Assembly: GCA_964016885.1 (NCBI GenBank)
Contig: OZ024759.1
Location: 13,392,001-13,456,000 of the forward strand
Length of the DNA stretch: 64,000 bases
Source: Eledone cirrhosa
Lineage: Eukaryota
Direction: 5' to 3'
The notes under the pieces were generated by a model. It made no database searches. It was given only the letters and a program-made list of their open reading frames with translations, and had not been told where the DNA came from. Positions 42,622 to 47,103 of this stretch are shown one piece after another (the stretch's first letter is position 1; each line of letters begins with the position of its first letter). The position numbers and the translations under genes were made by a program.

Positions 42622-42654
42622 GCAGGACCTGCTATGAATAATGCTGTCCAGTCT
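42622..42654 (+). CDS. DENND1A: DENND1-like exon 13, 33-nt micro-exon
   Basis: ctttag|AGPAMNNAVQS|gtaagt, resembling ANPAMKTVYKF; phase 0/0. Confidence 0.82.
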
Positions 42655-43011
42655 GTAAGTTTTATATTTATCTTCTCCTTGCTATTAACTTCCCTCTTCT
42701 TTTGCCTTCCATCCCAACCACATGACCCCTATTTTTATCACATCTTTCAGGGGTTAGATACTAAAAACATCTGCCCTATGATTGTAGCATTTAAAAAAAA
42801 TTATTGTTATTCTAGTTTCAAATCTAGAGTTTGTAGAATTTACAAAATTTCTCCATTTAAAATAAAAAAATCACCCACATTCCCATATTTCTTTTATAAA
42901 ATATGTACAGTATATACATATGTGTGTGTATGTGTATATATATATATGTGTGTGTGTGTGTATATATATTTATATATATATATATGTATGTATGTATGTA
43001 TCTGTATATAT

Positions 43012-46000
43012 TGCGCGGGGACATAGAAATAACCGGCCTGGATGCCCGATCGCACAGTTAAACCACTGGGAGTGAAGAACCCCTAGCCTTTGTCAGGGCA
43101 TTCTTCTAGGAGAAGGCATCTCAGGAAACTGGGTTAACTCCGATATAAAACCTGCAGCTCAGTAGTTACCGATGATGTTGATCTGTTCTTCTTTTCGGGT
43201 TATAGCTACTGTCGCTCAGAGAGTGGGATTGGCTCAGTGCACAGTCTTTCCTCACTTTAAAAATATTCGTCGCGCACAGGCATTGCACGAGTGCATTAAT
43301 AATTATCAATAGTGTACTACTATTATTATTATTATTATTATTACTATTATTATTACTTTTTTTTTTTTTTTAATTTTATTTATTTATTTTTTTTTTATTT
43401 ATTTATTTATTTTTTTTCCTAATTCAATGATGTTCCAGAACAATGTAAAAGAGATAGTTGGCAATTTAGGTTCTGGAACAAAAAAGATCATTGGCAATAA
43501 GGGCAGGGGCCCCAAGTTATCACAGCCTGGGCCCACTCGTCATCGTGCCATTGTAATAGAGCCAAACAAGACATTTAGTCTTGGCTGCTGGAACGTACGG
43601 ACGCTGCTTGACAGGGATTCCTTGGAGTGTCCTGAACGAAGGACCGCTCTTGTTGCAAAGGAGCTTCGACGTTACGATCTTGACATCGTGGCTTTATCTG
43701 AGATGAGGTTAGCTGGAGATGGTCATCTTACGGAATTTTGTGGAGAATATACATTCTTCTGGAAAGGAAGAGATGAAGGAACCAGAAGAGAGGCTGGGGT
43801 AGGATTTGCTGTTAAGACTGTACTTGTGAATAAATTAGAAGAATTCCCAGTAGGGATTAGTGAGCGTCTTATGTCCATGAGAGTTCCGCTGGACAAAGGA
43901 AGATATGCTACCCTGGTGAGTGTGTATGCTCCAACTATGAATTCTGTCGATGAAGAAAAACTGTCCTTTTACCATGCCTTGAAAGGTGTTCTAAGAAATA
44001 TCCCTCAGGCAGACAAAGTCATCGTGCTTGGTGACTTTAATGCTAGAGTGTGTAGGGATTTTAACACATGGAATGTAATCGGAAGGCATGGGGTGGGAAA
44101 GTGTAACAGCAATGGTATGCTCCTGCTGCAGATGTGTGAAGAGCTGGATCTGTGTGTTACCAACACCATGTTCCAACAAAAGAACAAATTCAAGACCACA
44201 TGGATGCATCCTGCATCTAAGGAATGGCATCTTTTGGACTATGTCCTAGTCAGGATGCGTGACAGACAGGATGTGCAGTGTGTTCATGTTCTTCGTGGAG
44301 CTGAGTGCTGGACGGACCACCGGCTGGTACGCGCAAAAGTGAAACTAATCACCAAACGTAAAATCCGGGCTCCTGGTGTTACCCTGCCCAAAAGATTGAA
44401 TGCTGCTCGTCTTAAGGATAAAAATGTGAAGAGGACATTGGAAGAAGAGATGCAGGCTGCAGATCTTGATGAGGATTGGCCGACCCATAAAAAGTCGGTT
44501 TATGATGTAGGCAGGCGTGTTCTGGGATTGGTGCAGAGAAAACATCAGGACTGGTTTAATGAGAATGATGTACATATAGAAGACTTGTCGGCTGATAAGA
44601 GGCGTGCTCTGTCACGCTACTTGAGGGCAAAACCACAGGAGAGGAATACGTTGCATGAGGAGCTCAGGGATGTAAAATCACGTGTTAGGCGGAGTCTTTC
44701 TCAGATGAAGGATCAGTGGTGGAGTGAGAAGGCTGGTGAGATACAAACTGCGTCTGATTCCAATAACACAAAGCTGTTGTACAGTCTCTTGCGTGAGGTT
44801 TATGGACCGTCTTCTTCTCTGGTGACACCGCTTCGCAGCAAGGATGGCAAAGAACTTCTTCGTGACTCACAGGGAATTCTACGAAGGTGGCGAGAGCACT
44901 TTGATGATCTTTTGAATCAGCCGTCTGTCGTCAGTGAAGATTTCCTCAATCTCATTCCAGAAAGTCCTGTGAAAGTAGCTCTCGCAGAACCTCCGACGCT
45001 TGTGGAGGTTGCAGTGGCTATTTCGAAGCTGAACAGTGGAAGATCTCCAGGTATGGATGGCATACATGCTGAGCTCCTACAATATGGTGGTGAGAGACTC
45101 CTGCAACATCTGCACTCTTTGATTGGAAGGATATGGGCTAATGAATCTGTACCTGAGGACTGGAGAGATGCAGTAATGGTGGTCTTGTACAAGGGAAAGG
45201 GTAACAGGAATGATTGTGGGAACTACAGAGGTATATCATTGCTTTCTGTTGTAGGGAAAGTTTTATGTAGGGTGCTTCTGGACCGTCTGCTGACACACAT
45301 TGCAGATTGTGTTCTTCCTGAAAGTCAATCTGGTTTTCGTGCTGGACGCGGCACTACTGATATGATCTTCTCAGCTAGACAGCTCCAGGAGAAGTGCATT
45401 GAACAAGGCTTGGATCTGTATCAGGTTTTTGTCGATCTGACAAAGGCTTTCGATACTGTCAACAGAGAGGCATTATGGAAGGTTCTCCAGAAACTTGGTT
45501 GCCCTGATAAGTTCCTTGCTTTAGTTAGGTCTTTCCATGACGACATGAAGGCTTGGGTTAATGTCGGAGGTAACATGTTGGAGCCTATCTCAGTAAAAAA
45601 TGGAGTGAAACAGGGGGATATTCCAGCACCGACCCTGTTTGCCATATACTTTGCAATGGTTTTCTGTATTGCAGTCAGGAATTGCGAGCATGGTGTTTAC
45701 ATCCGATATCGAACCTCAGGCAGCATATTTAACATCAGGCGCTTTGCTGCGAAGACAAAAGTGTTTACATCAATCATAAGAGACCTCTTGTATGCAGATG
45801 ATTGCGATTTTGTAGCGCACACAGAGAGTGATATGCAGCACATTTTGAATGCATTTTCTGACGCTTGCACTGCCCTGGGTTTGACTGTCAGTCTCAAGAA
45901 AACCGTCGTCATGTACCAACCTGCCCCTAGTAAGCAGTACACCGAACCAAACATCTATGTGTATGGCAAACGACTTGGAGTGGTTGATCAGTTTGTCTAC

Positions 46001-47103
46001 CTGGGAAGCACTGTCAATCGATACGGCAACCTTGACAGTGAAATCTCACTTAGGATTAGGAAAGCAAGTGATGCTTTCGGAAAGCTAGACAGGCGACTCT
46101 GGGGTCGGCGAGACATATGCAGGAGGACAAAGGTAAAGGTGTACAGGGCATGTGTACTCTCTTGTCTTCTTTATGCCTGCGAGACCTGGGTCACATATCG
46201 ACACCAGCTTAAGCAATTGGAGCGTTTCCATCAGATGTGTCTCAGACGGATCCATGGCGTTCACTGGAGGGACCACATCAGTGATGTCGAGATTTTGGAA
46301 AGCTCTATGTGTGACAGTATAGAAGCTCTTGTGCTTAAGCAACGACTCCGTTGGAGTGGTCACCTTGCCAGGATGAAGGATTCTAGAATACCAAAACAAC
46401 TCTTCTATGGAGAGTTGGTTAAAGGAAAACGACCGCCACATAAACCAAAAAAGAGGTATAAGGATTCCTTGAAAGCCTCTCTGAAAGACGCTAACATCTC
46501 TGCTGATAAATGGGAAAATGTTGCTGCTGATCGTAATAAATGGAGAAAGACTGTATATGAGGGAAAAGTTGCCTTTGAGGCATCTCGAATCGCACACGAG
46601 AAAGTAAAGCGGGATGTGAGGAAGGGCATTGCTGTTGCACTTCCAGACGGCGAGGGTCCTCCTATGGTGCTGACATGCAGCGTCTGTGCGAGACTCTGCC
46701 TAAGCAAAGCTGGACTCGAAAGTCATCTTCGCAGTCATAAAGTAAGACCAGTGGTTGACTACCAGGCTGCTGTTGGAGATGCTACTCATCATGCTTGCCA
46801 AACATGTGGTAGAGAATGTAAATCAGCAGGAGGGCTCAAGCGACATGCAAAAGTACACGAACTCCAACCACAGCCGACTATTCCCAGTGAATGTTTTGGT
46901 TGCCGACTCTGTGCAAGACATTGTAGTTCATTGGCTGGGCTAAAAAGCCACATTCGATCGCAGCACTGTTAGTTGTTATCGTGTGTGTGTGTGTGTAGAT
47001 ATGCTTATGTGCGTGCGTGTGTGTGTATATATATATGAATATGTATATTATTATTGTTGTTGTCGTTATTATTATTATTGCTATTATTATTATTATTGTT
47101 ATT

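Follow-up and report, generated by a model that had tools for sequence, protein, structure and literature searches.

A probable RTE-type LINE passenger in a phase-0 intron of DENND1 in Eledone cirrhosa, with a candidate cryptic splice acceptor at the start of its reading frame

INTRODUCTION

When a retrotransposon lies in sense orientation within an intron of a host gene, and its open reading frame (ORF) can be joined in frame to the exon upstream, do the two form a fusion gene or is the element simply a passenger? This question is raised by a long interspersed nuclear element (LINE) in an intron of DENND1 in a 64,000-nt stretch of the octopod Eledone cirrhosa genome (assembly GCA_964016885.1, contig OZ024759.1, positions 13,392,001 to 13,456,000 of the forward strand), which we refer to as the window and in which all coordinates are given. 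The initial annotation of this locus proposed that a splice acceptor at the start of the LINE ORF joins the DENN module of the host to the endonuclease (EN), reverse transcriptase (RT) and zinc fingers of the element, by analogy to the CSB-PGBD3 exon-trap fusion. We find that the copy is probably a young, 5′-truncated RTE-type passenger in a phase-0 intron and not a CSB-PGBD3-like fusion gene. As judged from the sequence, a DENND1::LINE fusion is possible yet unsupported.

RESULTS

The LINE copy and its position in DENND1

The window bears a DENN match, and tblastn combined with splice-site scans located 15 DENND1 exons of 33–160 nt spanning 2510 to 59589. Joined together, these exons give an open frame of 438 aa with 413 residues identical to Octopus DENND1 proteins, and a search with a single exon recovers octopod DENND1 at 98% identity. 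The exon upstream of the LINE (42622..42654, plus strand, as are all features described here) is a microexon of 33 nt that encodes AGPAMNNAVQS and ends in phase 0 at the donor TCT|GTAAGT, as originally annotated. It behaves as a cassette, being skipped in many cephalopod DENND1 isoforms and included in others.

The LINE starts 358 bp 3′ of this donor in sense orientation to DENND1, in agreement with the distance of about 360 bp first reported. It is flanked by a 12-bp target site duplication (TSD), ATCTGTATATAT, found at 43000..43011 at the end of a TA/TG microsatellite and again at about 47345–47356. Microsatellite sequence flanks the insertion on either side. Comparison with family copies places a 300-bp 5′ untranslated region (UTR) core at 43012..43312, with the copy truncated at the first T-run; it is followed by a (TAT)n/T-rich tract and the start of the ORF (43313..43438). 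The single ORF (43427..46972) encodes 1181 aa, with an AP endonuclease domain at residues 55–276 (PF03372), an RT domain at 595–862 (PF00078) and three C2H2 fingers at 1084–1104, 1124–1144 and 1159–1180. Besides it, we found no upstream ORF of at least 150 aa in the window copy, the family leader having been checked by eye only. The 3′ UTR (46973..47356 including the 3′ TSD) is microsatellite- and T-rich, and has a conserved 3′ end with a (CAT)n tail. When a second haplotype was sought in the assembly, only one locus was found.

An ORF with an N-terminal AP endonuclease and an RT but no separate ORF1, together with a (CAT)n tail and a 12-bp TSD, is in line with the RTE clade, in which 3′ ends consist of short tandem repeats instead of poly(A). 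The family is therefore likely RTE-type, with indirect support for the clade from the CFDP2-like names of homologs. The ATG at 43427 is likely the native start, because homologs of other organisms begin at their own methionine at a similar distance before the endonuclease. The initial annotation described the LINE as intact, which holds for its stop-free ORF but not for the rest: two invariant endonuclease residues are changed, and a leader of ~1.15 kb present in the family is missing, truncation having occurred at the T-run ahead of the 300-bp core. By losing this leader through 5′ truncation, the window copy would also have lost whatever promoter the leader may hold.

Splice geometry and acceptor strength

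The proposed splice geometry is borne out in every measurement. AG dinucleotides occur at 43311 and 43437 with none between them, leaving an AG-free zone of 124 nt, and the CAG at 43436–43438 is codon 4 counted from the first of two successive ATGs (43427 and 43430). An intron from 42655 to 43438 would be 784 nt long, and fusing 43439–46972 to the 13 DENND1 exons that precede it in the window adds 1177 aa of the LINE in an open frame with no internal stop. Since the acceptor lies inside the ORF, splicing to it would remove the ATGs of the LINE itself. Because 10 of the 15 DENND1 introns, among them each of the six from position 30234 on, are in phase 0, the frame match, which had been considered a one-in-three chance, is to be expected. 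The microexon is often skipped, and the exon preceding it (35234..35293, KQGKKL...DFKVK; recognized by tblastn to cephalopod DENND1, sequence and phase) ends in AAG|GCAAGA, giving a GC-AG intron just 5′ of the alternatively spliced microexon; this phase-0 GC donor at 35293 could therefore equally be the partner of the LINE acceptor.

The branch-like CTAAT motif is indeed present at 43419–43423, but it lies 3′ of the T-tract, whereas in acceptors the branch point usually precedes the tract. It is a rare variant of CCAAT/CCCAAT, seen in one of the 53 loci that span the start of the ORF and once more in locus L105, and we rejected it as a branch signal of the family. A branch point further upstream, followed by scanning to the first AG, is possible.

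The acceptor was scored with a position weight matrix (PWM) covering −20 to +1, trained on the 15 DENND1 acceptors and blind to more distant T-tracts. The LINE site at 43438 reaches 3.3 bits, compared with 11.5 for the canonical acceptor of the next DENND1 exon (50805..50867, VKSQSKK...EDFYK; supported by tblastn, sequence and acceptor score), and 14 of the 15 true acceptors outscore it in leave-one-out analysis. Scores at least as high are found at 200 of 2583 intronic AGs and at 40 of 485 in the same intron, including 42751 (10.6), which is nearer to the donor. The pyrimidines adjoining the AG are weak (5/10).

Downstream of this site, a donor CTG|GTGAGT after 43915 reaches 5.8 on a donor matrix, equal to or above 10 of the 14 GT donors of DENND1. 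Paired with the acceptor at 43438, it would delimit a predicted cassette exon of 477 nt (43439..43915) that is in frame at both ends and has no stop, and the donor is present in 48 of the 50 copies read there. Considering canonical signals only, there is no AATAAA or ATTAAA between the stop at 46972 and the end of the element, with the next at 48422; AATAAA occurs inside the ORF at 43829 and 46535. A read-through transcript re-spliced 3′ of the stop would be an expected target of nonsense-mediated decay. In addition, the 3′ UTR does contain a T-rich tract similar to that of the 5′ UTR, as the initial annotation cautioned, but no YAG lies behind it. The joint 42654 to 43439 was absent among 15 of 19 joints in contigs of four of six read runs, none on record as RNA, and runs X4–X6 have no depth over the microexon bin, which makes these contigs uninformative on splicing in either direction.

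The acceptor sequence in the LINE family

The candidate cryptic acceptor is a property of the family. The junction TCCAG|AACAAT has 950 exact genomic copies, and CAG is present in 52 of the 53 loci covering the ORF start, which were picked by their likeness to the window. Retention of the tract and CAG in other copies, proposed earlier as a check, is thus widespread but not universal: another 159 matches have no G before AACAAT, and among 100 inspected, 89 carried CAA, 8 differed by other point changes or small indels and 3 matched by chance outside the LINE. CAA, which is synonymous for Gln-4, is found in apparently older copies. The median identity to the nearest neighbour is 99.4% for CAG copies versus 95.0% for CAA copies (the CAG set being ascertained by likeness to the window), and the median T-run is 24 versus 8. 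The family has thus spread with and without the AG. In the 3′ half of the ORF, each of the 39 other copies scored (out of 2640 candidates) matches the window copy at 98–99% identity, and a fully open ORF of 1180–1181 aa is found in 5 of the 23 such copies that cover the start.

Full-length copies have a 5′ UTR of ~1.55 kb, about 1.15 kb longer than that of the window copy, beginning with GAGGGAGC. At +45 of the leader lies a consensus donor, GG|GTAAGT, which is intact in 275 copies. We considered a spliced 5′ leader of the element, but retrocopies do not support it, as no spliced form was found among all 23 variants at this donor (13 + 10). Past the donor, the leader is microsatellite-rich and intron-like (L062:889-2070, L066:851-2054 and L072:865-2063) and resembles a captured host first exon with the start of its intron.

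Several further observations concern the structure of the family. A short non-autonomous element combines the 300-bp 5′ UTR core with the LINE 3′ end in a bipartite, SINE-like arrangement (L010:1-300, corresponding to 43012–43300 and 47300–47346 of the window), and contig depth is much higher over 43004–43299. Loci L151 and L152 (near 1400–1500) have no 300-bp core between the T-runs, so that the leader joins the ORF start; this may be a deletion between T-runs or the ancestral form. At G000:C1:296782186-296825203 (L115-L121), at least eight leader copies are spaced at ~3.3 kb or multiples of it, likely by tandem amplification, and seven leader copies of this cluster share a GT to TT change at the donor. 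The LINE ORF is also matched, mostly at 95–99% and at low depth, by contigs of organisms B and C (runs X5 and X6), which may derive from close relatives, diet or contamination.

Selection and traces of host-driven expression

We count 23 substitutions private to the window copy (0.65%); 5 of them are synonymous and 18 are non-synonymous, which gives a dN/dS of 1.33. This does not differ from the other copies (193 synonymous to 500 non-synonymous, dN/dS 0.96; Fisher p=0.64), and observing five or fewer synonymous changes among 23 would have a probability of 0.001 were dN/dS 0.3. Variants common to at least four copies have a dN/dS of 0.39, which serves as a positive control for selection on source lineages. 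Two of the private changes alter endonuclease positions 93 and 209, which all 80 of the 80 homologs keep unchanged; another four affect residues conserved in >80% of homologs. We therefore see no purifying selection on the captured ORF, which appears to drift neutrally. The open ORF itself was rejected as a sign of selection, given these neutral private changes, the altered invariant residues and the other copies that are open too.

The suggestion that the LINE might borrow host promoters finds no trace in the genomic copies inspected, in the form of either daughters or copies with spliced host exons. A 24-mer with a private 3′ variant of the window copy was found once in the genome, so there is no daughter later than that change. 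Spliced retrocopies were sought as foreign sequence directly before AACAAT, a test to which exons ending in CAG are invisible; inspection of 123 junction variants out of 182 (15/15, 8/8 and 100/159) revealed none.

Other elements in the window

Decayed fragments of another non-LTR element with a CCHC-like C-terminus are present in DENND1 introns at 21502–22353 and 27071–27240. RT-related remnants occur near 62410–62664 and 63030–63900.

DISCUSSION

Because the tract and CAG are common to ~950 copies and the window copy shows no selection, an ordinary passenger is the likely explanation. The element would have entered a TA-rich microsatellite through target-primed reverse transcription, and would likely be spliced out with the DENND1 intron, the canonical acceptor at 50805 presumably winning. 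CAG may simply be the Gln-4 codon, preceded by a UTR microsatellite that grew longer in the younger subfamilies, with the tract and CAG acting at most as a minor cryptic acceptor that gives rare chimeric RNA. A cryptic terminal exon would have no AATAAA nearby, so the 477-nt cassette with half an endonuclease would likely be better defined. The arrangement at DENND1 is unremarkable in number as well, since about 70–110 sense copies in phase-0 introns are expected by chance, about 15–23 of them with open ORFs, under our assumptions that 30–45% of the DNA is intronic and half of the introns are in phase 0.

Several points weigh against this reading. Acceptor scoring, which had been suggested for this site, is unfavorable by PWM, but the T-tract upstream of 43438 is outstanding, with 17 T in 20 positions, equal to the best real DENND1 acceptor; only three intronic YAG sites in 55.8 kb reach at least 15 T, and the LINE site is among them. 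With so strong a tract, despite the weak surroundings of the AG, low-level cryptic splicing is plausible. Intronic transposons in Drosophila often yield substantial chimeric mRNA in the data described in 10.1101/838045, and therefore the cryptic use is not guaranteed to be minor. Selection acting on the element, and not drift, could explain why CAA and short T-runs gave way in the family to CAG and long T-runs. In addition, the dN/dS of the window copy is based on just 23 substitutions, and very recent co-option would leave no signal.

If the acceptor were used regularly, the product might be the internal 477-nt cassette or a transcript ending early at the AATAAA of 43829 or 46535, which would amount to unselected exonization or mild gene-breaking. 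The donor after 43915, well scored, in frame with its acceptor and nearly constant among copies, speaks for such an outcome along with the strong T-tract, the alternative splicing of the adjoining DENND1 exons and the presence of AATAAA inside the ORF. Yet the pyrimidines beside the AG are weak, competing cryptic AGs score better, and 477 nt exceeds all 15 DENND1 exons found here, which leads us to regard regular use as unlikely. The cassette would carry 159 aa, comprising the LINE N-terminus and half the endonuclease. A broader possibility is that younger subfamilies gained a working acceptor through long T-runs and the change from CAA to CAG, so that sense intronic copies across the genome make host::EN-RT fusions driven by host promoters, the DENND1 locus being one of tens, or that the element uses a spliced leader. 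The younger age and longer T-runs of CAG copies are consistent with this, as are the leader donor in 275 copies and the precedents of the piggyBac exon trap (PMC2268245) and RAP1GDS1-L1PA2 (PMC13174262), to the extent these are described there. However, a LINE is copied from its own RNA, and a used acceptor should therefore leave spliced retrocopies, of which there were none among the inspected variants compared with 950 unspliced matches, nor any at the leader donor. Splicing from that donor would remove both ATGs and be out of frame, the similar tract of the 3′ UTR has no YAG, and homologs start at their own methionine. A narrow whole-word literature search, itself weak evidence, found nothing on spliced RTE 5′ UTRs. 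Altogether, an exon trap at the family level seems quite improbable.

The strongest form of the original proposal, in which the LINE has been domesticated as an alternative last exon of a functional and abundant DENND1::EN-RT-ZnF fusion, we hold to be highly improbable. The open in-frame join would keep the DENN module, the ORF is stop-free, and a promoterless copy could perhaps be expressed from the host only. Against these stand the neutral private substitutions, the changed invariant EN residues, the absence of daughters and the distance to the next AATAAA at 48422. Weaker evidence comes from other species, with an RT domain in none of 13 DENND1 hits of up to 2000 aa, and the 30 cephalopod DENND1 sequences inspected either continue from this region into the usual following exon or are fragmentary. 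A protein search for host sequence fused to the LINE N-terminus gave matches of at best 62% identity near its length (among the best 120 of 917 hits) and 62 shorter hits, with no close family member and thus no ability to reveal fusions. Among the papers listed for DENND1 and retrotransposons, none concerned such a fusion, as judged by titles or the starts of abstracts.

Comparison with known systems places the passenger reading in context. RTE LINEs with a C2H2 finger are already known in octopus: RTE-2_OV of Octopus vulgaris, as presented in PMC9115989, has a single ORF of 1109 aa with endonuclease, RT and a C-terminal C2H2 finger, and a 5′ UTR of about 600 nt. The LINE described here, likened to it by architecture only, has 1181 aa, three fingers and a 5′ UTR of ~1.55 kb in full-length copies. 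Many unnamed protein homologs have a similar architecture. The CSB-PGBD3 fusion, according to PMC2268245, has an acceptor 7 nt upstream of the methionine, a polyadenylation site about 130 nt past the stop and an abundant mRNA, and has been conserved for at least 43 My. The DENND1 locus resembles it as a sense intronic element with an acceptor that sits beside its ORF start and keeps the frame of the preceding exon. The analogy does not extend beyond this frame: the AG lies inside the ORF, the 3′ UTR has no AATAAA after the stop, and the copy is a young and neutral member of a multi-copy family, known here from sequence alone.

Three other systems come closer than CSB-PGBD3: BCNTP97, RAP1GDS1-L1PA2 and the cryptic chimeras of Drosophila. 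For the predicted cassette, the closer precedent is BCNTP97 (p97Bcnt, CFDP2), a ruminant host gene with an RTE-1 endonuclease domain that, as given in PMC12129022 and PMC4613681, arose in a duplicated gene. It likewise joins an RTE-type endonuclease to host exons, and two homologs of the LINE N-terminus are named ‘craniofacial development protein 2(-like)’. In BCNTP97, the EN domain is intact, in contrast to half a domain in the cassette. For RAP1GDS1-L1PA2, PMC13174262 describes promoter co-option shown by chimeric retrocopies and long reads, with the acceptor upstream of the element and the ORF starts kept. The DENND1 LINE is similarly a 5′-compromised intronic element that splicing could place under a host promoter, but neither daughters nor chimeric retrocopies were found in the variants inspected here. 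Lyosin and other L1 ORF1p fusion isoforms resemble the DENND1 proposal in that a LINE ORF supplies an alternative coding exon to a host gene. PMC12129022 reports that these isoforms derive from ORF1, are ancient and expressed, and mostly evolve under purifying selection; of conserved ORF2-type fusions, the same paper says that they have still to be elucidated. Transposon-gene chimeric mRNAs of the Drosophila brain (10.1101/838045) are shown by reads, unlike the DENND1 case. If splicing were observed, the DENND1 LINE would join the class of intronic insertions with cryptic splice sites described there.

As best explained, then, the DENND1 LINE matters little, being one of roughly 70–110 comparable copies expected by chance. 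An exon trap at the family level, with DENND1::LINE as one example, would be a retrotransposon counterpart of the piggyBac exon-trap lifestyle and would join a whole-ORF, RT-containing LINE to a trafficking GEF. If family-wide use of the acceptor proved true, it would bear on whether the LINE expression reported in the octopus brain is autonomous or host-driven, an idea for which the DENND1 locus is a convenient test case.

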